From a virus: 35,799 bases of DNA. Of this stretch, positions 100-32,922 are shown in pieces. Each line of letters begins with the position of its first letter. Within the stretch, counting starts at the first letter, position 1. Both the position numbers and the translations under genes were made by a program. The notes beneath the pieces were generated by a model. The model ran no database searches, had not been told where the DNA came from, and saw only the letters and a list, made by a program, of their open reading frames with translations. The stretch is taken from the IMG/VR virus record IMGVR_UViG_3300045988_086486. One strand, given 5' to 3'.

Positions 100-406
100 G
101 ATTGCCCGATTAAAGCGGGTTTTCAAAGACCTTGACAAAAACAAGTTGCAGACCGTGGAAAGCCTGATAAAAAACGCCGCGTTCATGGCCGTTTCGCTGG
201 AAGAGCTACAAGAAATCATCAACGCCGAAGGCTATGTTGTGGAGTACCAGAACGGCGAAAACCAGAAAGGCACGAAGCAGAGCGACGCGGTGAAAACCCA
301 TATAGCAATGACGAAAAACCATGCCGCAATCATTAAGCAGTTGACTGATCTTGTGCCGCCTGAAAAGAAAAAAGAAAGTAAATTGCAGGCGTTGAGGGAC
401 GAATAA
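53..406 (+). CDS. terS: Terminase small subunit (P27-like)
   Basis: 117-aa ORF with GTG start 8 nt after AAAGGGGG. It abuts and overlaps the large terminase start at 406. Size, charge and position are typical of small terminases. Confidence 0.7.
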   Translation: MATKKELTKEQKIKKEIARLKRVFKDLDKNKLQTVESLIKNAAFMAVSLEELQEIINAEGYVVEYQNGENQKGTKQSDAVKTHIAMTKNHAAIIKQLTDLVPPEKKKESKLQALRDE

Positions 407-2058
407 TGCCCTTTGCGAATTACATTTACGAATATTTTTCAGGTATTCAGAGCGGGAAATATACGGTTGGCAAATGGGTTCGGCTGATTTACGAAATCAT
501 CATAGCGGGACTTGAACGGGGCGAATATTTCTTCAATGCGAAGAAGGCAAACAAAGCGATCAAGTTTATAGAAAACTTCTGTCACCATTGCGAAGGCCGC
601 GAAGACCTTTTGAAACTGGAAGTGTGGCAGAAGGCTTGTGTTTCCGTTATCTTCGGGATCGTGGACGCGGACGGCTTGCGCGTCTTCCGTGAAGTGTTTA
701 TTGTCATAGGCCGGAAGAACGGCAAGACGCTTTTTGCGTCGGCCATTATCGCATATATGGCGTATCTTGATGGAGAATACGGCGCGAAAATATATTGCCT
801 TGCGCCGAAGCTGGATCAAGCGGCCATTGTTTACGATAACTTTTACCAGATGTTGAAGAAAGAACCGGAGCTTGCGGAGCTGGCGAAAAAGCGGCGTTCC
901 GATATTTACATAGAGGACACGAACACGGTTGTTAAGCCGCTGGCGTTCAATGCAAAGAAAAGCGACGGCTTCAACCCGCATTTGGTCGTCAATGATGAGG
1001 TTGCAAGCTGGCGCGGCGACGGTGGTTTGAAGCAATACGAGGTTATGAAATCCGCGCTTGGCGCACGGCGGCAACCGCTGATCCTGTCCATTTCCACGGC
1101 GGGATATGAGAACGACGGCATTTACGATGAATTGATGAAGCGAAGCACGGCTTTCTTGAAAGGCAACAGCAAGGAACGCCGCCTTTTGCCGTTCCTCTAC
1201 ATGATTGACGATGTGGAAAAATGGAACGATATTGAAGAGTTGAAGAAGGCAAACCCGAACATGGGCGTTTCCGTGTTCCCTGACTTCTTCCGCGAGGAAA
1301 TAGCGGTTGCGGAAATGTCCGCAAGCAAAAAGGCCGAATTCCTGACGAAGTATTGCAATATCAAACAGAATTCTTCTATTGCGTGGCTTGACGCGCACAT
1401 AGTAGAAGGCGCAACGGCAGAAATCACACTTGAAGACTTCCGGCATTCTTACGCCGTGGGCGGCATTGACCTTTCGCAGACAACAGACCTTACCGCGGCA
1501 ACCGTCATTGTGGAGCGCGGCGGCAAGCTATACGCGTTCACACAATTCTTTATGCCTGCAAACCGCGTCGAGCGGGCAACGGCGATCGACGGCGTGCCCT
1601 ATGACATATTTGTGAAAAAAGGCGTTGTTACCCTTTCCGGCGAAAACTATGTAGATTACAAAGATGTTTATAACTGGTTCGTCATGCTGAAAGAAAAATA
1701 TGAAATCTATGTGCTGAAAGTCGGGTATGACCGTTACAGCGCGCAATACCTGATTGACGACATGGCGGCATACGGCTTCCACATGGACGATGTTTTTCAG
1801 GGTGAAAACCTTGCGGGCGTGATCCGCGAGTTTGAAGGGATTTTGCTTGATGGCAATTTCAAAATACCGGATAACAGCTTGTTAAAGTCGCATTTCCTGA
1901 ATGTGGCCTTAAAGCACAACATGGAAACGCGCAAGTTCCGGCCTGTCAAGATTGAACAGCGGGCGCGGATCGACGGCTTTGTATCAGTCATTGACGCAAT
2001 GACCGTCCGGCAAAAATACTATAACGAAATCGGCGTAATGCTGAAAAATGCGGGGTGA
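406..2058 (+). CDS. terL: Terminase large subunit
   Basis: 550 aa with a Walker-A-like GRKNGKT motif. It lies immediately upstream of the portal gene and resembles Terminase_1-type proteins. Confidence 0.9.
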   Translation: MPFANYIYEYFSGIQSGKYTVGKWVRLIYEIIIAGLERGEYFFNAKKANKAIKFIENFCHHCEGREDLLKLEVWQKACVSVIFGIVDADGLRVFREVFIVIGRKNGKTLFASAIIAYMAYLDGEYGAKIYCLAPKLDQAAIVYDNFYQMLKKEPELAELAKKRRSDIYIEDTNTVVKPLAFNAKKSDGFNPHLVVNDEVASWRGDGGLKQYEVMKSALGARRQPLILSISTAGYENDGIYDELMKRSTAFLKGNSKERRLLPFLYMIDDVEKWNDIEELKKANPNMGVSVFPDFFREEIAVAEMSASKKAEFLTKYCNIKQNSSIAWLDAHIVEGATAEITLEDFRHSYAVGGIDLSQTTDLTAATVIVERGGKLYAFTQFFMPANRVERATAIDGVPYDIFVKKGVVTLSGENYVDYKDVYNWFVMLKEKYEIYVLKVGYDRYSAQYLIDDMAAYGFHMDDVFQGENLAGVIREFEGILLDGNFKIPDNSLLKSHFLNVALKHNMETRKFRPVKIEQRARIDGFVSVIDAMTVRQKYYNEIGVMLKNAG

Positions 2059-3302: not shown

Positions 3303-3825
3303 CAGCGAATTCTATGTAGAAGGCTATGCAACCACCTTCAACAAGCCGTATCTTCTCTATGAGTTCGATGGGGTGCAATACTTTGAAGTCATAGACCGGA
3401 ACGCGCTTGTTGGCGCGGACATGTCCGATGTTATCATGCAATATAACCACGAAGGCAAGGTGCTTGCCCGACAATCGAATAAAACGCTTGGAATAGAGGC
3501 CGACGAAAGCGGCCTCTTTACTTTTGCCGATTTATCGAAAAGCCGTGCCGCACAAGACCTTTACGAAGAGATCAACAACGGCTTGATTACAAAAATGTCG
3601 TGGGCGTTCAAGGTTTTAGAAGACGCATACGACAGGGACACGCACACAAGAACCATTTTGAAGATCAAGAAGGTTTACGATGTTTCGGCGGTATCTTACC
3701 CCGCAAACAGCGATACCGAAATATCCGCGCGTTCTTTCTTCGACGGAGTGATTGAAGCAGAGAGGCGGGAGGCGTTAGCGCGGAAAGCACAGCTATTAAA
3801 ACTAAAAATCATGTTGGAGGTATGA
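3220..3825 (+). CDS. Prohead maturation protease (HK97 / S78-like)
   Basis: ATG at 3220 lies 10 nt after GGAAAGGAGG. The sequence from MPVMKDREYR onward resembles HK97-family prohead proteases. The longer ORF from 3142 overlaps the portal gene and is unlikely. Confidence 0.8.
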   Translation: MPVMKDREYRSMVLPLTAEAKKATKRFDSEFYVEGYATTFNKPYLLYEFDGVQYFEVIDRNALVGADMSDVIMQYNHEGKVLARQSNKTLGIEADESGLFTFADLSKSRAAQDLYEEINNGLITKMSWAFKVLEDAYDRDTHTRTILKIKKVYDVSAVSYPANSDTEISARSFFDGVIEAERREALARKAQLLKLKIMLEV

Positions 3826-3829
3826 CACT

Positions 3830-5038
3830 ATGAACAGATTACAGGAAATTGAAGCCCGCCTTGCCGCGATTGCGAACGAGATCGAGCAGAGAGGCGCGGA
3901 GCTGACCGAGGAGCAGTTGACCGCGTTTGAAACCGAAGTGAAAAATCTGAAAACCGAGCGGGCGGGGCTGATGGCCGCCGCCGAAAAGCGCAACAACCTT
4001 CTGAATTCCATTGCGGAGGGCAGAAGCGGCGGCGCGGTTGTCCGCACCTTCCCTTCCCCCTCTTCCCCCGCAGGCGGTGAACAGAGGGACGAAGCCGATC
4101 CGCTGGACAGCATGGAATATCGCCGCGCATTTATGGCATACGCCCTTCGCGGCACGCCTATTCCCGCAGAGTTCCGCACGGACGCTGTTTCCAAAACCGC
4201 GGACAATGGCGCGGTGATCCCGACAACCATTCTTAACCGGATCGTCGAGAAAATGGAGGCCGTGGGAATGATCCTTCCCCTTGTGACGCGCACCGCGTAC
4301 AAGGGCGGCGTTTCTATCCCTACTTCCAGCGCGAAGCCCGTTGCCTCTTGGGTAGCGGAAGGCGCAGGGAGCGACAAGCAGAAGAAGACCACGGGAAGCA
4401 TTACTTTTGCTTACCACAAGTTGCGTTGCGCCGTGGCCGTATCCCTTGAAGTGGACACAATGGCACTTTCGGCCTTTGAAAATACCCTTGTCAACAATGT
4501 TGTCGAGGCTATGACGAAGGCAACCGAACAGGCCATTGTATCCGGCACGGGTAGCGGACAGCCGAAGGGCATTCTTACCGAAACCCCGAACGAGGGGCAG
4601 AAGATCGAGAGCGACACGCCCACATACGAAGACCTTGTGAACGCCGAAGCCGCATTGCCGCAGGCATACGAAAACGGCGCGGTGTGGTGCATGGCAAAGA
4701 AAACCTTTATGCAGTATTACGGCCTTGTCGATGAAACCGGACAGCCCGTAGGCCGTGTGAATTACGGCATTGCAGGCAAGCCGGAACGCGCCTTGCTTGG
4801 CCGCCCCGTCATTTGTTGCGACTATGTGCCTTCCGTGGCAACCGCGGCGAAGGGCGGCGCGTATGCGTTCCTGTTCAACTTCAAGGACTATGTGCTGAAC
4901 ACCAATTACACCATGACCGTGAAGAAGTACGAGGACAACGACACGGACGACATGGTAACGAAGGCGATCATGCTTGTTGACGGCAAGGTGATTGACAAGA
5001 ATTCCCTTGTTGTCGTCGCAAAGGTCGCAGGCGCGTAA
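3830..5038 (+). CDS. Major capsid protein (HK97 fold) with N-terminal coiled-coil delta domain
   Basis: 402 aa. It has an N-terminal heptad-rich segment, then a conserved HK97-like core, and it follows the protease gene. Confidence 0.9.
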   Translation: MNRLQEIEARLAAIANEIEQRGAELTEEQLTAFETEVKNLKTERAGLMAAAEKRNNLLNSIAEGRSGGAVVRTFPSPSSPAGGEQRDEADPLDSMEYRRAFMAYALRGTPIPAEFRTDAVSKTADNGAVIPTTILNRIVEKMEAVGMILPLVTRTAYKGGVSIPTSSAKPVASWVAEGAGSDKQKKTTGSITFAYHKLRCAVAVSLEVDTMALSAFENTLVNNVVEAMTKATEQAIVSGTGSGQPKGILTETPNEGQKIESDTPTYEDLVNAEAALPQAYENGAVWCMAKKTFMQYYGLVDETGQPVGRVNYGIAGKPERALLGRPVICCDYVPSVATAAKGGAYAFLFNFKDYVLNTNYTMTVKKYEDNDTDDMVTKAIMLVDGKVIDKNSLVVVAKVAGA

Positions 5039-20947: not shown

Positions 20948-21598
20948 TTACTCATTCCGGAAACGCAATGTTATTTCCGCGCCATAGTTCCGGCCTTCGC
21001 CGCCGCCGTAAACCTCTATGTTTACGATCCCGTCGAGGCGTGAAAAATTGTCGTTCACATACGAAACATATTCGGCGGGAATATTCCCGATTTGATCGCC
21101 GTTGACATATACACCGAAAGCGGGCTTGCCTTCCCATTCTTCCCGTTGCAAAGTCAATTCCATTGTGCCCTTGTCGAAAGGTTCGTCTTTGAAGTGGATT
21201 TTGCGCAAAATGGTTTGACGGCTTTTGCGCCCGTTCTTGAAGGTAACGCCCGCAACCTTCACGGAAAGAAATTCAAAAGCGGGCTTTGCTTCGGAAGCCG
21301 GAGCGGGTGCGGCGGCTTCTGCTTTCGCAGGCCGCGGATCGGCGGCGGGTGTAACATGTGCGGTTGTATCTGCTTTAGGAGCAGGCGCGGCGGCCTCTTT
21401 CGGTTCCGTCGTGGCCGCGGGTGGTTCTTTCTTTGGTTCAGGCCGCGCGGCCTTTTTTCGCAAGCCAATAAAAAACAGCGCGGCGGCAATCACAATCCCA
21501 CAAACGCCCGCCCCTATATCGCCTTCGACAAATAGCGGGATTGAAGAAATAAGGAACAGCGCACCAACGCCCCACAGGATCAACACAGTTTTTTTCAT
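20948..21598 (-). CDS. Membrane-anchored HIRAN-like domain protein (lysogeny-module moron)
   Basis: This is the only convincing minus-strand gene. An AAAGGAG RBS precedes it. It has two N-terminal TM helices, a Pro/Ala/Lys-rich linker, and a C-terminal segment FLSVKVAGVTFKNGRKSRQTIL...LQREEWEGKPAFGVYVNGDQIGNIPAEY resembling HIRAN. Confidence 0.6.
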   Translation of the reverse strand: MKKTVLILWGVGALFLISSIPLFVEGDIGAGVCGIVIAAALFFIGLRKKAARPEPKKEPPAATTEPKEAAAPAPKADTTAHVTPAADPRPAKAEAAAPAPASEAKPAFEFLSVKVAGVTFKNGRKSRQTILRKIHFKDEPFDKGTMELTLQREEWEGKPAFGVYVNGDQIGNIPAEYVSYVNDNFSRLDGIVNIEVYGGGEGRNYGAEITLRFRNE

Positions 21599-21666
21599 AG
21601 TTTGAATAACTCCTTTCGTGTGCTTAAATTATGGCAACGAGGGAAGAATACTTTTCGTATTCTGAC

Positions 21667-22686: not shown

Positions 22687-23730
22687 ATGGGGCATTGTTT
22701 TAGCCATTTGACAAAGGCAGACCGTTACAAGATCGAAGCGTTATTGAATAACGGCCATTCGGCAAAGGAGATCGCCGCGGAAATTCATGTGCATATCAGC
22801 ACTATTTACCGCGAAGTAAAACGCGCCCGCATGGTTCACCGTAATTCGGATTGGACGGAGGAAGAAAGGTATAATCCGGACGAAGCACACAGGCGATACC
22901 GTGAAAACCTTTCGGCAAAAGGCGCGCCGCTGAAAATTGGCCGTGATTACGCCCTTGCGGAATATCTGGAAAGAAAAGTGCTTGAAGAAGGCCGATCCCC
23001 CGCCGCCGCACTTGCCGACATTGCTTTAGAGGGGCTGGAATTCAAAACCACAATTTGCACAAGCACCTTTTACGGCTACATAACAAAGGGTGTGTTTCTT
23101 ATGCTGACAAACAAGGATTTGCCGGAAAAGGCAAAACGAAAGCGGAAATATCGCAAAGTGAAGACGGCCAAACGCGCCCCACGCGGGAAGAGCATAGAAA
23201 AACGCCCCGCCGAAGTGGAGGGGCGCGAAGTCTTCGGACATTGGGAAATGGATACCGTTTACAGCGGGAAGCAGACTTCAAAGAAAGCCCTTCTTGTGCT
23301 GACGGAGCGGAAGACGCGACAAGAAATTATAGAGCGTATGCCGGATCGGACGGAGGAAAGCACCATAAAGGCACTTGACCGTATAGAACGGCGGTTCGGC
23401 GCGCTATTCCGCAAAGTGTTCAAAACGATCACCGTTGATAATGGCGGGGAATTCTCCAATGTGGAAAGGTTGGAACAATCCGTGATCCGAAAGGGAAAGC
23501 GGACACGCTTTTACTATTGTCACCCGTACAGCAGTTTTGAACGGGGATCAAACGAAAACCAAAATAGAATGATACGGCGGCGATACCCTAAAGGAACAGA
23601 CTTCGGGAAGGTATCAACCGCCGCAATAAAGAACCTTGAACAATGGATCAATAACTATCCGCGTGAAATATTGGGCTGGAAAACTTCTGCAATGTGCTTC
23701 CGAGAATGCCTTGACGCGCTATTAAAATAA
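22687..23730 (+). CDS. IS30-family DDE transposase
   Basis: 347 aa. It has an N-terminal HTH (AKEIAAEIHVHISTIYREVKR) and DDE-region motifs GHWEMDTV, ITVDNGGEF and ERGSNENQNRMIRR. Confidence 0.88.
   Translation: MGHCFSHLTKADRYKIEALLNNGHSAKEIAAEIHVHISTIYREVKRARMVHRNSDWTEEERYNPDEAHRRYRENLSAKGAPLKIGRDYALAEYLERKVLEEGRSPAAALADIALEGLEFKTTICTSTFYGYITKGVFLMLTNKDLPEKAKRKRKYRKVKTAKRAPRGKSIEKRPAEVEGREVFGHWEMDTVYSGKQTSKKALLVLTERKTRQEIIERMPDRTEESTIKALDRIERRFGALFRKVFKTITVDNGGEFSNVERLEQSVIRKGKRTRFYYCHPYSSFERGSNENQNRMIRRRYPKGTDFGKVSTAAIKNLEQWINNYPREILGWKTSAMCFRECLDALLK
22687..23730 (+). mobile_element. IS30-like element core (transposase ORF only; terminal inverted repeats not identified)
   Basis: I found no convincing IR pair in 22629-22686 versus 23731-23892 by eye, so the element boundaries are unresolved. 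Confidence 0.35.
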
Positions 23731-24573: not shown

Positions 24574-24596
24574 GCGCGAAAGGAGCTATTCAAACT

Positions 24597-24776
24597 ATGT
24601 TGATGAAATATGCCGCGATCGTGACTTACACAGACGGGAGCAAAACAGGCGCAACCATAGAGGCACAAAGCGCGGCTAAAGCGTGGAATAAAATATTGAA
24701 TTTGTTTAATCCGGAAACCATATCAGGAATTGAGGTTGCCGCGATATTGGCAGAAGAAAGGGAGTGTAAAGCGTGA
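24597..24776 (+). CDS. Hypothetical protein
   Basis: ATG at 24597 is preceded by the conserved cassette GCGAAAGGAGCTATTCAAACT. Confidence 0.45.
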   Translation: MLMKYAAIVTYTDGSKTGATIEAQSAAKAWNKILNLFNPETISGIEVAAILAEERECKA

Positions 24777-25597
24777 ATTTAGTTTCTTTTGGCGGCGGTA
24801 CGAATAGCACCGCAATGATTATCGGCATGTATCTTCGGAAAATTCCGATTGATCTTATTATCTTCGCAGGCACAGGCGCAGAACAGCCGCACACCTACAA
24901 ATTTATAGAACAGTTCAACGCATGGTTAATAAATCACGGCTTGCCGGAGATCACAACGGTTTACACAACGGATAAAGAGGGCAACCGCCTTTTCCTTGAA
25001 GCGGAATGTTTTGAGCGCAAGACGCTTCCGGCAATCGCTTTCGGGTTTAAGACCTGTTCGCAAAAATATAAAATTCGCCCTACGGAAAAGTTTTTGAACA
25101 ATAACGCGGCATGTAAAGCGGAATGGGCGGCGGGGCGAAAAATTATAAAGTTTATCGGATACGACGCAGGCGAAACACGAAGAGTTCAACACGGCGAGGC
25201 GGCGAACGAACAAAACAAGAAAATTGAAAACCGTTACCCGCTCTATGAATGGGGGTGGGATCGCGCGGAATGCGTGCGTGTGATCCAGCGGGCAGGGCTT
25301 CCGCTTCCTGCAAAATCAAGTTGCTATTTCTGTCCTTCCATGAAGAAGAAGGAAATTCAAGCCCTTTGGGAACAATTCCCTGATCTATTTCAAAAAGCGG
25401 TAGAAATTGAGCGAAACGCCGCAGAAAATTTGAAAACGGCGAAGGGGCTTGGCCGTTCGTGGGCGTGGGGCGACTATTACGCGGAATTTATGCGGGCAAA
25501 GGAGTTTGAAGAAGCGCAAATTTCCTTCGATCAATTATTTCCGGAAACAAAGGGCGGTTGCTTATGTGGTGCGCCGTGTGGTTGCTATGACGGATAA
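24773..25597 (+). CDS. PAPS-reductase-like PP-loop (adenine nucleotide alpha-hydrolase) protein with a C-terminal Cys cluster
   Basis: It has an SFGGGTNS PP-loop near the N-terminus, CYFCP, and a terminal CLCGAPCGC. 274 aa. Confidence 0.7.
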   Translation: MNLVSFGGGTNSTAMIIGMYLRKIPIDLIIFAGTGAEQPHTYKFIEQFNAWLINHGLPEITTVYTTDKEGNRLFLEAECFERKTLPAIAFGFKTCSQKYKIRPTEKFLNNNAACKAEWAAGRKIIKFIGYDAGETRRVQHGEAANEQNKKIENRYPLYEWGWDRAECVRVIQRAGLPLPAKSSCYFCPSMKKKEIQALWEQFPDLFQKAVEIERNAAENLKTAKGLGRSWAWGDYYAEFMRAKEFEEAQISFDQLFPETKGGCLCGAPCGCYDG

Positions 25598-26231: not shown

Positions 26232-26252
26232 GCGAAAGGAGCTATTCAAACT

Positions 26253-26573
26253 ATGTCGAAGCAGAAGCAGGACAAGCGGGGCGGCGGCTGGCAGTTCCCC
26301 CGCCCGATCGAAATTATCAAGTGCAAAGAGGGCAACAAAGAATACATGAAGGAACGCCCCGCACGCAAGCCTTACGGAAGGATCGTCAAGGTGTGCGAAT
26401 TCAGCCTTGAAGCCGTCGCAGAGTTTGGCGACGACGACGCGCGGACGGTGTGGAGGCTGGCAAAGCGGGCGGCGCGCGACTTCTTGCGGGTATCGTGGAT
26501 CAATACGGCCATTGTAACCGCCGCGAAAACCGATCGCCCTTATATGGCCGTGATTGTTTACGGCAAATATTAA
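26253..26573 (+). CDS. Hypothetical protein
   Basis: 106 aa. The ATG is preceded by the conserved cassette GCGAAAGGAGCTATTCAAACT. Confidence 0.5.
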   Translation: MSKQKQDKRGGGWQFPRPIEIIKCKEGNKEYMKERPARKPYGRIVKVCEFSLEAVAEFGDDDARTVWRLAKRAARDFLRVSWINTAIVTAAKTDRPYMAVIVYGKY

Positions 26574-28097: not shown

Positions 28098-28380
28098 GAC
28101 GCAGAGGCATTCCCGCTTTGTGCTGATGTCGCTTGATGAAATCCGCGCCACGCGGGACATTGTATTGCAGACGGAGGAAACGAAAAGCAATTTTTCCGGA
28201 TCGGGCAAAACGGTTTATATTTGCGAAGTTGTGCGCCCTTGCGATTATCAAAAGGAAACGGACACCGCCGCGGACAAGCTGGCCGCAGAGATCGAGCGGG
28301 TAAACGCCGACAACCGCGCCTTGCGCCGGAAGGTTGAACGCCTTGAACGAGAATTACAGAAAGCGAGGGCGGGCGCATGA
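28090..28380 (+). CDS. Hypothetical protein with a C-terminal coiled coil
   Basis: The ATG at 28090 overlaps the preceding gene's end. The C-terminus is AEIERVNADNRALRRKVERLERELQKA. Confidence 0.45.
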   Translation: MIRTQRHSRFVLMSLDEIRATRDIVLQTEETKSNFSGSGKTVYICEVVRPCDYQKETDTAADKLAAEIERVNADNRALRRKVERLERELQKARAGA

Positions 28381-28832
28381 ACAAGGCTTTGTTATCCTCT
28401 AAAAATATGTGCTGGTGTACGCCGCAAGACTTCTTCGACAAGCTGAACGAAGAATTTTCCTTCACGCTGGACGCGGCGGCCACAGACAAAACGGCAAAAT
28501 GCCCGCTATATTTCACGCCGGAAACGGACGGGCTTAAATCCTCTTGGAAGGTTGCGGGGGGGGGTACAGTATTTTGCAATCCCCCGTATGGGCGCGAAAT
28601 CGGCAAGTGGGTTCAAAAGGCATACGAAGAGGCGCAGGCCGGAACGCCGATTGTTCTTCTTATTCCAGCGCGTACCGATACAAGCTATTTCCACGATTTT
28701 ATATACCACAAAGCGGAAATTCGCTTTATTCGTGGGCGGCTTCGGTTTACGGACGACGACGGCAACGCCGCCGATCCCGCGCCCTTCCCCTCTATGCTGG
28801 TGATTTATAACGGAAAGGCGGTGAAATCGTGA
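28377..28832 (+). CDS. Phage DNA N6-adenine methyltransferase (Dam-type)
   Basis: 151 aa. W.TPQDFFD.L..EF.F.LDAAA is followed by the catalytic NPPY motif. Confidence 0.85.
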   Translation: MNKALLSSKNMCWCTPQDFFDKLNEEFSFTLDAAATDKTAKCPLYFTPETDGLKSSWKVAGGGTVFCNPPYGREIGKWVQKAYEEAQAGTPIVLLIPARTDTSYFHDFIYHKAEIRFIRGRLRFTDDDGNAADPAPFPSMLVIYNGKAVKS

Positions 28833-31028: not shown

Positions 31029-31172
31029 ATGACGGCATTTGAATTTATGGTTGCCGCCTTTTATGCGCTTGTCGGCGTGGTTTGCCTTTCCGTGGCGGTT
31101 GTGATCGTGTATGCCGTTGTGGTAGGCATTTATAGAGGATTGAAAGGCGGTGGACACCGTGGCAGAAAATAA
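31029..31172 (+). CDS. Small single-pass membrane protein
   Basis: 47 aa with a hydrophobic core (FMVAAFYALVGVVCLSVAVVIVYAVVVGI) and a basic tail. Confidence 0.35.
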   Translation: MTAFEFMVAAFYALVGVVCLSVAVVIVYAVVVGIYRGLKGGGHRGRK

Positions 31173-31569
31173 AACCTTCAACGAAGAAGCCCTTGTTGAA
31201 ATGGCGCACACGATGGGTTTTGACCTTGCGCACGCGTGCGCGGCGGCGGCTGACGCATTCGCCCGCGGCGTGGCCGATGGCTTCGCCGCCTATGCGCAAG
31301 AGCTGGCCGCCGAAAACGGCGGCGTTGAGCTGGTACACGATGGAGAAGACGAAGAACCGGAGTTGAAAACGGATATTCAGGATTGCCGCCGTTGCTGGTG
31401 CGATACATGCGGCAAGTTGGAAGAGTGCAAAAAGCACCGCGACGGCACACAGCCGGACGGCTTGCGCCCGCTTCCGTGTATCGGGTGCGTGAACGGCCTT
31501 CGGTTCAAGCCGAAGGAAGAAGAGCCTTGCGAAGAGTACACGGAGGCCGCGGGCTTTAATAACGGATAG
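31150..31569 (+). CDS. Hypothetical protein with a Cys-rich C-terminus
   Basis: About 139 aa with a GTG start. It has an acidic middle, then CRRCWCDTCGK..C....CIGC. Confidence 0.45.
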   Translation: MDTVAENKTFNEEALVEMAHTMGFDLAHACAAAADAFARGVADGFAAYAQELAAENGGVELVHDGEDEEPELKTDIQDCRRCWCDTCGKLEECKKHRDGTQPDGLRPLPCIGCVNGLRFKPKEEEPCEEYTEAAGFNNG

Positions 31570-31577
31570 AAAAGAAG

Positions 31578-31608
31578 AAGGCGGCTTGCGTTGCCTGCAA
31601 GCCGCCTT
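31578..31608 (+). terminator. Hairpin after 31150..31569
   Basis: AAGGCGGCTTGC / GCAAGCCGCCTT forms a 12-bp stem with a 7-nt loop. The T-run is weak (TTTC). Confidence 0.45.
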
Positions 31609-32007
31609 TCCCCCTTCGCGTCGCCGCGAAAAGAGCTATTCAAACTAACGACAGTATAACACCGCGGCGGCAGAATGTCAAGAAACGCCGGAACACGGCG
31701 TATTACGGGCTTGTAATGGGTATTAACACATGGACGGAAAAGCAGAATTCCGGAAGTGCTGGTTTGTATTCAATTCCCCGTCGCCTGCTTTATCAGGATC
31801 ACGGAGGCGGCAAGCTGTCAAGGGTGCGACAGCACCGCGAAAGCGGCTTGCCCTTGATGGGTTGTTGCCGGAGTGATAGAAGCAGGAAAGGCGGCGGGGA
31901 TAAATGCAAACCTTCCGGCCTTGCGTGTTCAATTCCTTTGAGCCTGCTTCCCCCTTTAGGGGGACGGGAGGGGGTGAAACCTTTACCACGAGCAGGGAGG
32001 AAACAAC

Positions 32008-32922
32008 ATGCCGTACAACAGCGCAAAATATGAATTCCTCTTTGACCTTTCCGGAGAGAACACCGAAAGGGCGTTTGATCGGTTCCGGCACAGGAATGTT
32101 TTTCGTTATCGTACCCGCACGATCAAGGCGGGAAATGTGCTTGAAGTTGAGATATTCCCGATATGGAACACGCAAAACGAGGTTCGAGAGGCAAAGAAGC
32201 ACACAACACGGGAAGCACAAAAGAACCTGAATGACAAAAACGCAAAAAAGAAGTTCATTCGGAAGATCAATGCGAATTTCACGGAAGAAGACCTTTGCGT
32301 AACGCTGACATATTCAAACGGCTTTGTTCCGGACGAAGAGCAGGCGCGCCGCGATATTCGGAATTACCTTCGCAGGGTGCGGGAGTATCGCCGGAAGAAT
32401 GGCCTTCCAGAATTGAAATACGCCTATGTGATCGAGTTCGGCGGGAAAGATGGGCGGCGCAAGCGTGTTCACCACCATGTCATTATGTCCGGCATGGATC
32501 GGGACAAAGCCGAAGCCCTTTGGAATGGCCGCGGGTATGCAAACGCCCGCCGCCTGCAACCGGACGATTACGGATTAGAAGCCCTTGCGCGCTATATGAC
32601 GAAGGAGCCGAACGGCGGCAAACGGTGGGCGGCAAGCAAAAACCTTGTTGATCCGAAAATCACGGAGGCCGACACTAAAATAAGCCGCCGCAAGGTGGAG
32701 CAGATGGCCGAAGACTTCGAGGCGAAACCCGCCGCGATCTTCGCTGCGCTTTTCCCTGAATACAGCTTCAACGAATGCGCCGTGCGGTATTCGGATTTTG
32801 TGGCAGGCGCGTACATATACGCAAAATTACACCGGAAGGCCGCGCCGCCGCAGAAGCAGAAAAAGAAACGGAGGGTACGCAATGAACACAACGGAAATGA
32901 TGGTAATTTGCCGCGAAGTTGA
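32008..32922 (+). CDS. HUH-superfamily rolling-circle replication initiator (Rep)
   Basis: Motif 1-like CVTLTY, HUH motif RVHHHVIM, and Tyr motif ALARYMTKE. 304 aa with a basic C-terminus. Confidence 0.7.
   Translation: MPYNSAKYEFLFDLSGENTERAFDRFRHRNVFRYRTRTIKAGNVLEVEIFPIWNTQNEVREAKKHTTREAQKNLNDKNAKKKFIRKINANFTEEDLCVTLTYSNGFVPDEEQARRDIRNYLRRVREYRRKNGLPELKYAYVIEFGGKDGRRKRVHHHVIMSGMDRDKAEALWNGRGYANARRLQPDDYGLEALARYMTKEPNGGKRWAASKNLVDPKITEADTKISRRKVEQMAEDFEAKPAAIFAALFPEYSFNECAVRYSDFVAGAYIYAKLHRKAAPPQKQKKKRRVRNEHNGNDGNLPRS

Follow-up and report, generated by a model that had tools for sequence, protein, structure and literature searches.

A candidate replication-control region upstream of an HUH Rep gene in a tailed temperate phage of gut Oscillospiraceae

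Small rolling-circle-replicating (RCR) plasmids often carry the double-strand origin (dso) upstream of rep and control Rep through antisense RNAs of ~80 nt, and their lagging-strand origins are folded cassettes of ~160 nt that are orientation-specific, independent of Rep and interchangeable (PMC5703833, PMC5714925). Here, a region of related layout is described in IMG/VR record IMGVR_UViG_3300045988_086486, a stretch of 35,799 nucleotides (the window) that represents a complete tailed temperate phage of 36 kb with almost all genes on the + strand. The region is a 438-nt gap (31570-32007) between a + strand open reading frame (ORF) of 139 amino acids (31150-31569) and the start of rep at 32008, the gene of an HUH-type replication initiator. 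It is made up of three elements, a predicted minus-strand small RNA gene, a probable dso and an accessory folded cassette (Table 1). That these together form the replication-control region of a gut Oscillospiraceae temperate tailed phage with rolling-circle replication, organised like a small RCR plasmid with dso, counter-transcript and single-strand initiation cassette, is a proposition we hold with evenly divided confidence. The layout, with a dso upstream of rep, a counter-transcript of ~80 nt and an exchangeable folded element, is of the RCR-plasmid type, present here in a tailed phage with a different Rep family.

Comparison with RCR plasmids of the pC194/pUB110 (Rep_1) and pMV158/pE194 (Rep_2) types shows an HUH Rep with a single catalytic tyrosine, a probable origin just upstream of rep composed of a palindrome and a conserved candidate nick word (CTTGTAA in the phage, compared with CTTGATA in pC194), a predicted counter-transcript that is short (~80 nt) and terminated, and a large, orientation-specific, exchangeable folded cassette as common features (PMC5703833, PMC5714925). 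In contrast to these plasmids, the replicon is a 36-kb tailed temperate phage, the Rep belongs to PF23343/phrog_3584 instead of Rep_1 or Rep_2, the small RNA is positioned beyond the origin and not over the rep translation start, and the cassette lies directly 3' of the putative nick. The predicted small RNA resembles RNAI of pSK41 and pT181 in its size of about 80 nt, its single-stranded 5' tail, its two stem-loops and its intrinsic terminator, and pSK41 RNAI (~83 nt) has its target in a long rep leader, ~100 nt ahead of the ribosome-binding site (RBS) (PMC5703833), whereas there is no homology between these RNAs and in the phage the origin separates the antisense gene from rep. The cassette is comparable to the single-strand initiation (ssi) signals of phage G4, phiX174 (ssi/pas), RSF1010 (ssiA) and pAMbeta1 (ssiA) as strand-specific folded DNA that would engage host primase or primosome, and in its location on the displaced strand a short way beyond the leading-strand start, a location shared by the ssiA of pAMbeta1 and the pas site of ColE1. 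Two of the words seen at the cassette apex are those of known priming sites, GCGAAAGC, located where primase starts in the complementary-strand origin of G4, and CCGAAGG, found in RSF1010 ssiA (PMC13037366). Beyond these mini-hairpin words there is no homology, and in contrast to the ssi signals the cassette is far longer (a hairpin of 150-190 nt plus a 3' domain), rich in G.T pairs and of predicted role. The Rep family name REP_ORF2-G2P provides a link to gpII of the filamentous phages (Ff), in whose intergenic region a terminator, complementary-strand priming hairpins and the gpII nick site lie within ~500 nt upstream of the initiator gene. The Ff are, however, single-stranded DNA (ssDNA) phages with a complementary-strand origin 5' of the nick and a packaging hairpin, and show no sequence similarity to the phage region.

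For the comparative analysis, 130 loci were gathered via Rep from viral, genome and metagenome collections and about 150 via DNA words (loci carry L numbers below). Prophages identical or near-identical to the window are present in Oscillospiraceae genomes of Pseudoflavonifractor sp. Marseille-P3106, Ruthenibacterium, Acutalibacter and Neglectibacter. The Rep encoded in the Pseudoflavonifractor genome, LT827124, is 100% identical to that of the window. An earlier note, made from the window sequence, had described the interval as non-coding and highly structured, and both descriptions hold. The indels of relatives measure 1, 5, 17 and about 50 nt and many are not multiples of three, indicating that the interval is non-coding; a 105-amino acid ORF (31716-32033) was rejected as coding on account of these frame-breaking indels. 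The + strand folds with -195.3 kcal/mol (z -7.26 relative to shuffles) compared with a z of -3.99 for the minus strand. BLAST searches with sub-segments revealed uneven conservation: all close relatives share the left 175 nt, a core of ~30 nt persists even in relatives whose rep DNA no longer aligns, and the structured right-hand 250 nt are limited to some lineages. The covariance-model scan proposed in the note, carried out with Rfam 15 on the whole window at the gathering threshold, gave zero matches, a permissive search with the interval and the large-apex version of the cassette returned only matches with E above 1, and a phage-database search with the interval DNA gave only two weak partial matches. 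GC skew, also proposed there, is monotonic with no inflection at the interval and thus uninformative for the origin. As kinds of element all three are known; they match no curated family, no description of them was found in the searchable literature, and the cassette is the part that could be a new class.

Table 1. Coordinates of the features described in the text
Feature	Position	Strand	Basis or description
large terminase	406-2058		phage window
predicted small RNA, ~78 nt	31569-31646	-	promoter and terminator, fold, covariation
intrinsic terminator hairpin	31578-31608	-	perfect 12-bp stem, 7-nt loop
degenerate ('orphan') RBS-ATG cassette copy	31626-31647	+	on the minus strand, small RNA 5' end
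sigma-A type promoter	31653-31681	-	-35 TTGACA (31681-31676), 17-nt spacer, TG (31661-31660), -10 TATACT (31658-31653)
origin hairpin CGCCG-GAACA-CGGCG	31686-31700	+	GC-rich stem-loop at same position in relatives; DNA fold
invariant core GGGCTTGTAATGGGTATTAAC, candidate Rep nick and recognition site	31707-31727	+	single copy, Rep linkage, conservation
accessory cassette, ~250 nt	31761-32002	+	covariation, patchy distribution
long imperfect hairpin	31761-31912	+	z-scores, covariation, G.U bias
tandem apical mini-hairpins GCGACAGC / GCGAAAGC	31826-31833 / 31837-31844	+	motif conservation
cassette 3' domain	31925-32002	+	RNAalifold helices 6-8
HUH rolling-circle Rep	32008-32922	+	PF23343 and phrog_3584 matches, invariant catalytic residues

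The probable double-strand origin and its Rep

An alignment of 41 distinct relatives shows a hairpin whose sequence varies freely while the stem is kept, then 3-7 nt, and then a nearly invariant word, GGGCTTGTAATGGGTATTA(A/T)C; the invariant stretch beside the hairpin measures 16-19 nt. The variable GC hairpin occupies this position 5' of the core in all lineages inspected (hairpin sequences were compared in L026, L027, L035, L045, L052, L098, L111, L114 and L122). The core is single-copy in the window even with three mismatches permitted, and its exact 16-mer word CTTGTAATGGGTATTA is found in at least 120 IMG/VR contigs. A Rep homolog lies downstream on the same strand in 108 of the 127 core matches listed, at a distance of -56 to 512 nt (median 70), and Rep identity descends to 29%. 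The 19 matches lacking Rep comprise 13 that are cut by the locus end, three chance coding matches, L236, which has no hairpin context, and two of genuine appearance. The chance matches (L142, L221 and L235) are core words inside unrelated coding sequence, encoding ...ALVMGIM..., and a search with the core word alone therefore yields a few false origins. In the cultured Clostridium perfringens phage PhiS63 (L283, 1395-1440) the core with an upstream GTCAA is positioned about 60 nt before the annotated replication initiation gene, as are a variant core and upstream GTCAA in phiSM101 (L282, 1395-1440); the core region carries no annotation in either record. A more distant Rep lineage (25% identity), that of the small integrative elements termed group 2 below, has an altered core word, GGCCTTGTAAATAAGTAAGG, likewise behind a hairpin. 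A conserved single-copy word beside a hairpin and linked to an HUH Rep has the appearance of a nick and recognition site (PMC5714925, PMC5703833). Judged from these sequence features, we are fairly confident that the hairpin together with CTTGTAATGGGTATTA, at 31686-31727, is the dso and contains the predicted nick site. The core sequence itself was not found in the searchable literature. A small hairpin within the core, ATTAC-GGGCTT-GTAAT, is unconserved in relatives and was set aside.

The described nick consensuses are CTTGATA for pC194 and phiX174 and TAGTATTAC for the circovirus type. The core contains CTTGTAA, which agrees with CTTGATA at 6 of 7 positions, and GTATTA(A/T)C, and neither is an exact match to these consensuses. 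If pC194 and phiX174 are taken as models, the cut probably falls after CTTG (CTTG/TAAT), with a position within GTATTA(A/T)C as the alternative.

The encoded Rep is matched by PF23343 (REP_ORF2-G2P; E 1.7e-12) and, with E 2.7e-77, by phrog_3584, 'replication initiation protein'. It contains V-T-L-T-Y as motif I, both motif II (His-hydrophobic-His) and motif III (the catalytic tyrosine) are conserved, and His-155, His-157 and Tyr-196 are invariant (100%) in 66 diverse core-linked Reps; on this invariance the protein is classified as an HUH rolling-circle initiator with one catalytic tyrosine. A sequence search of the PDB with Rep gave no match, and the scanned window ORFs yielded no helicase, no primase and no helicase loader. 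The phrog_3584/PF23343 family is common in phages of gut and rumen Clostridia and of lactobacilli, including PhiS63, phiSM101, Toutatis, Arawn and hundreds of metagenomic contigs. No description of an origin for this family was found, and the region is without annotation in the records inspected. The 16-base word of the probable origin, together with the conserved divergent promoter, is a practical marker both for the annotation of these phages and for the construction of replicons for genetically difficult gut anaerobes.

The predicted minus-strand small RNA gene

The minus-strand promoter matches the consensus at 11 of 12 positions and has an extended -10 TG in addition; it is the only strong promoter-like site within 1.6 kb. 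Of the 59 distinct relatives having GTCAA near the core, 56 carry the pattern TTGAC[AT]-17-TGnTAnAnT, at a fixed 33-38 nt from the core and with drifting spacer sequence; PhiS63 has it as well. The earlier note had listed a terminator-like hairpin and an orphan copy of the early RBS cassette in this part of the interval. The perfect stem of the hairpin stands, and its T-run, CTTCTTTTCT, is on the minus strand (31577-31568), with only TTTCCCCC on the + strand side, indicating that it terminates a leftward RNA. The cassette copy is also real: the word GAGCTATTCAAACTA has 8 matches in the window against 0.64 expected, true sites with RBS and ATG are those at 21598 (minus strand), 24583 and 26239, and the interval copy has AAAGAG and no ATG. 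Because of the minus-strand promoter, which the note had missed, the two features can be read as the 3' and 5' ends of one small RNA gene.

The predicted RNA consists of an 11-nt 5' tail, stem-loop 1 (CUCUUUUCGCG-GCGA-CGCGAAGGGGG), the terminator stem-loop and a U-tail, and folds with -39.5 kcal/mol (z -4.63). Among the 38 distinct relatives with an identified terminator, 34 have 63-81 nt from promoter to terminator, and this constancy extends to lineages of unrelated sequence (L045, L098, L106/107, L110, L122, L137/169, L144 and L184); in other lineages an ORF may follow the promoter in place of the terminator. Stem-loop 1 covaries among relatives (CGCG/CGCG to CACG/CGTG) and has in L043 a G.U pair that is valid on the minus strand only, the terminator stem is conserved with one CG/UA covariation, and the minus-strand ORF at this position is interrupted by stops in relatives. 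From this combination of signals the RNA of ~78 nt is very probably transcribed, and its most likely role would be that of a counter-transcript limiting the supply of Rep. It is antisense to 31569-31646, a segment that belongs to the rep mRNA only given read-through from upstream; no + strand promoter was found inside the interval, and the rep promoter was not located. Among the Rfam families of counter-transcript RNAs the best match is ctRNA_p42d, with 15.8 bits compared with a threshold of 50 (E 2.9), and it covers the terminator hairpin only.

The translation-start cassette of 22-23 nt to which the orphan copy belongs, CGAAAGGAGCTATTCAAACTATG, is identical at 21598-21612 (minus strand), 24583-24597 and 26239-26253, with weaker copies at 3790, 27149 and 30028. 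The 5' end of the small RNA is a near-perfect antisense (one G.U) of this cassette, and regulation of those genes in trans is conceivable; antisense targets at gene starts were seen only in the close relatives L257 and L266 and not in L270, and the idea was left as speculation. The RBS-cassette copy upstream of the core retains an ATG in L012 (about 2585-2660) and L013 (about 2585-2658), where it opens an ORF of 23 codons whose stop is the TAA of CTTGTAA; this ORF is missing from the window.

Fold and distribution of the accessory cassette

The long hairpin of the cassette is built from a basal helix (31761-31770/31903-31912) followed by the helices CCCCGTCGCC/GGCGGCGGGG, CCTGCTT/AAGCAGG, ATCAC/GTGAT, GGCGGCAA/TTGTTGCC and TCAAGGG/CCCTTGA. 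Its z-scores on the + strand are -7.66 as RNA and -5.98 as DNA, compared with -4.89 and -4.49 on the minus strand. In an alignment of 19 sequences (A2), 96.8% of the hairpin cells are paired, compared with 50-62% when the partners are slid, and changes on both sides of a pair number 12, compared with 1-5 in the slid controls; none of 500 shuffles reached the observed values. The covariation for which the earlier note had proposed to look in related phages is thus found in this hairpin. Basal and inner helices covary, and several of the middle helices are sequence-invariant. G.U pairs outnumber A.C by 110 to 6 in the hairpin and by 62 to 2 in the 3' domain. The pairing is therefore specific to the + strand, which shows strand-specific structure and not activity.

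Two helices that had been proposed from the single sequence gave way to this fold. The outer stem GGCAAG/CTTGCC of a three-way junction reads GGCGCGG in L012, L013 and L017 and is used neither by the minimum-free-energy fold nor by the covariation; in its place is the helix TCAAGGG (31818-31824)/CCCTTGA (31851-31857), capped by the two small hairpins GCGACAGC and GCGAAAGC. A long-range helix between 31879-31891 and 31935-31950 competes with the pairing of 31880-31886 to 31783-31789, which is kept in 18-19 of the 19 sequences, and is itself unconserved in L013 and group 2. At the apex, a mini-hairpin word (GCGNAGC, GCGNNAGC or CCGAAGG) is present on the + strand in 44 of 45 non-redundant cassettes and on the minus strand in none of the 45, compared with 19% of shuffles having one. 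The variants are GCGACAGC with GCGAAAGC in the window, GCGAAGC with CCGAAGG in L012 and GCGAAGC twice in L043, and in L110 and group 2 the apex is a larger three-way structure with GCGAAAGC still inside. As DNA, such mini-hairpins are extraordinarily stable and are poorly bound by single-stranded DNA-binding protein (SSB), whereas r(GCGAAAGC) melts at 39 C and is much less stable than the DNA form (PMC13037366).

The 3' domain contains the second copy of a 25-nt direct repeat with TTCCTTT (31933-31939), a C5-TTTA-G5 hairpin (31950-31963) and a further G-run (31965-31973). Repeat and hairpin had both been reported in the earlier note, and both are real: the repeat copies (31766-31790 and 31925-31949) are 76% identical and kept in all cassette-bearing relatives, and the two arms of the hairpin change length in step (C6-GAA-G6 in L110). 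In silico, TTCCTTT can pair with the rep Shine-Dalgarno (SD) sequence GGAGGAA (31996-32002), and this pairing is found in 96% of cells in both gene contexts described below, with one-sided changes only.

Some further observations concern the same segments. The heptamer AGGCGGC occurs in 3 + 1 copies within the 438 nt (31579, 31805 and 31889 on the + strand, 31601 on the minus strand), compared with 0.56 per kb window-wide; the terminator stem is built from two of the copies, and the arms of the long hairpin contain the other two. A 17-nt complementarity between 31601-31617 and 31879-31895 is by inspection unconserved in relatives and probably arises from the repeated occurrence of GGCGGC. In its descending arm (31854-31882), the long hairpin reads TTGATG, 17 nt, TG-a-TAGAAG, a promoter-like arrangement that recalls single-stranded-DNA promoters and has the same spacing in all cassette variants (TTGATT, TTTACG or TTGAAG; TAAAAG). 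It was not adopted as a promoter in view of the G at the key -7 (last -10) position. In group 2 the 3' domain (L250, about 4795-4820) contains GGGAGGGGCGGAGGGGTGGG, which on the + strand agrees with a canonical G-quadruplex motif of four tracts; in the window, three of the G-runs lie close together and the fourth is distant.

Carriers of the cassette are the window clade, L012/L108, L013, L017/42/43/46/89 and L110 (Rep 57% identical). It is absent from the close relative L016 (Rep 79% identical), which has one repeat copy instead of two, and from L020 and L026; it is also absent from most other relatives, in which an unstructured spacer of 25-100 nt separates the core from the start codon, and in L019 and L045 a gene takes its place. 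A profile search (nhmmer) for diverged cassettes in about 2 Mb of fetched loci detected none beyond those known, its minus-strand matches being the hairpin against its own reverse complement, and the window holds no further copies.

A search with DNA words located the cassette in small integrative elements as well (group 2: L250 2775-8942, L251 1-13360, L253-256, L258-260, L262, L264, L265, L269, L271-273, L276-279 and L281). The gene order of these elements is integrase, repressors, Rep, core variant, cassette, a zinc-ribbon ORF of 44 codons, portal, protease, capsid, HNH, TerS and TerL. Their contigs cluster at 13.8-18.3 kb; the integrase is of the serine type, the Rep is an HUH protein and the capsid protein is the major one, no tail genes appear in the parts fetched, and these elements may be capsid-forming satellite-like elements of Oscillospiraceae. 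Compared with the window, their Rep is 25% and their TerL 36% identical, whereas the cassette arms are 81-84% identical. The cassette is always 40-63 nt 3' of a core and in a single orientation, and the gene that follows differs, being rep in the phages and the zinc-ribbon ORF and then portal in group 2. The high identity of the arms despite the divergence of Rep and TerL indicates that the cassette travels with the core and not with a particular Rep or downstream gene, and its occurrence in both suggests that these phages exchange genetic material with small capsid-encoding elements residing in the same hosts. In a 3-kb metagenome contig (L090, 1100-1503), a group-2 rep 3' end, core variant and long hairpin (100% identical to L250) are joined to a 3' domain and Rep of the window type (99-100% identical); the contig is a genuine product of recombination through the shared cassette or else a chimera created by assembly. 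A natural variant, L260 (906-1135), has lost the inner part of the long hairpin between two GGCGGCG words and retains the basal stem and 3' domain.

Proposed working of the region and competing explanations

The structured RNA that the earlier note had offered as its alternative is borne out as far as the structure is concerned, which is genuine and covarying, and action as RNA and action as single-stranded DNA are both candidates. Our preference, held at slightly less than even confidence, is that the cassette is a single-strand (lagging-strand) initiation signal. Features expected of single-strand origins that are seen in it are a strand-specific structure, a single orientation, a folded length of at least ~150 nt kept by selection, and a patchy occurrence independent of Rep; its sequence comparison with the known ssi classes covered the G4 and ssiA mini-hairpin words. 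In the proposed mechanism, Rep would recognise the origin hairpin plus GGGCTTGTAATGGGTATTAAC and nick the + strand within the invariant word, leaving a 3'-OH for extension by host polymerase while the + strand is displaced. The cassette would be the first DNA displaced and would fold into the long hairpin with its SSB-resistant tips, at which host enzymes (primase/primosome or RNA polymerase) could start the complementary strand or load the replicative helicase. The small RNA, from the promoter that abuts the origin hairpin, would pair with transcripts reading through from the upstream operon toward rep and so limit Rep, and in the rep mRNA the same cassette sequence could also mask the SD sequence via TTCCTTT. 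Small RNA and exchangeable cassette may offer entry points to copy-number control and to the start of the complementary strand in a tailed phage with only a plasmid-type initiator.

Several points weigh against this interpretation. Nicking, the small RNA transcript and priming are all proposals, and the promoter and terminator searches relied on home-made patterns. The cut position is ambiguous because the core has CTTGTAA in place of CTTGATA and because GTATTA(A/T)C is similar to TATTAC, the site of the circovirus type. The small RNA is antisense to the rep mRNA only if a + strand transcript reads through a hairpin that may itself be a + strand terminator, since the promoter of rep was not located. 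Plasmid single-strand origins are usually displaced last, whereas the cassette is located immediately 3' of the putative nick; nor is the cassette essential, as most relatives manage without it. G.U pairs make up 13-20% of its pairs and include an invariant tandem G.U, which is more typical of RNA than of DNA hairpins, and the cassette always ends at a ribosome-binding site with TTCCTTT able to pair with the SD sequence, an arrangement explained only by a role as RNA.

The alternative that survives best, which we consider possible but on balance doubtful, is that the cassette (31761-32002) is a cis-regulatory leader RNA of the downstream gene, in which the 3' domain sequesters the SD sequence via TTCCTTT and the long hairpin and the duplicated TTCAATTCC...CCTGCTT segments give alternative pairings, possibly switched by the upstream antisense RNA (as in pSK41 or pT181) or by a protein. 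The pairing is G.U-rich and specific to the + strand, the z-score of the long hairpin as RNA is the strongest of the four folds, and the TTCCTTT:SD helix is kept across two gene contexts. The cassette always abuts the ribosome-binding site, about 17-22 nt from the G-run, and the window clade has two copies each of CCTGCTT and AGCAGG. A precedent is provided by pSK41 RNAI, an antisense RNA of ~83 nt that induces SD sequestration from ~100 nt upstream (PMC5703833). However, the cassette has no Rfam match, no + strand promoter was found between core and cassette, and the alternative pairing is unconserved in L013 and group 2. Changes in the SD helix are one-sided, and any purine-rich SD sequence pairs with a CU-rich run. 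The apical hairpins with 2-bp stems (GCGNAGC, GCGNNAGC and CCGAAGG) are very stable as DNA and weak as RNA, and their variants remain in the DNA class; moreover, the cassette precedes unrelated genes, rep in one case and the zinc-ribbon ORF with portal in the other, yet it always follows a core. The leader-RNA and ssDNA roles are not mutually exclusive, since mRNA and displaced strand share the sequence. We tentatively suggest that, with either role, the cassette may represent a class of structured element not described before, specific to one strand and passed between tailed phages and small, satellite-like integrative elements of Oscillospiraceae that encode capsids. It would be a new type of lagging-strand origin of HUH-Rep double-stranded DNA phages or a new cis-regulatory RNA motif, and the RNA of ~78 nt would then be a phage counter-transcript whose 5' end is also antisense to the translation-start cassettes of several genes.

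The remaining explanations concern the origin and the cassette separately. It is improbable that the core, instead of being a nick site, is a transcription signal controlling rep, such as an operator or a promoter for a phage-specific factor. Its constant position upstream of rep, on the same strand and beside a divergent promoter, would suit such a signal, and the phage encodes a phrog_36 transcriptional regulator. The spacing, checked manually, does not fit the -35/-10 layout of a sigma-A promoter, for which the core was also considered and rejected; the single copy speaks against a reused promoter, the word changes along with the Rep lineage in group 2 and phiSM101, and 16 invariant bases across Reps down to 29% identity are typical of HUH nick sites and not of operators. 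Very unlikely is a selfish or neutral insertion, a palindromic element resembling a miniature inverted-repeat transposable element that was spread by recombination and has no phage function. The patchy distribution, the flanking direct repeats (TTCAATTCC), the natural deletions in L016 and L260 and the exchange between unrelated elements would be explained by it, but the cassette occurs at a single type of site only, on the 3' side of a core at a distance of 40-63 nt, and its orientation never changes, its helices are maintained by compensatory changes with strong strand asymmetry, and neither the window nor the roughly 2 Mb of fetched loci holds other copies. Hardly any credence is left for the origin proposed in the earlier note, a dso inside the structured part with nicking at CTTGAT (31853-31858) and the 25-nt repeats as Rep-binding iterons, which is largely refuted by the comparative data: the two features do exist upstream of an HUH Rep, but CTTGAT forms base pairs within a conserved helix, has CTCTTTA as its counterpart in group 2 and so is no conserved nick motif, and the whole segment with its repeats is an accessory, missing from most relatives with the same core and Rep family, including the close L016, and shared with elements whose Rep is 25% identical. 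An origin beside the HUH Rep, as that note had supposed, is by contrast well supported, at 31686-31727 rather than at 31853.

Elsewhere in the window, genes for portal, tape-measure and lysis proteins are present and an HNH gene lies at the right end. The only recombinase among the ORFs scanned is a phrog_4646 'transposase' (22687-23730; E 2e-137), and the early region also holds a PAPS-reductase-like gene (24773-25597) and a DNA methyltransferase (28377-28832).

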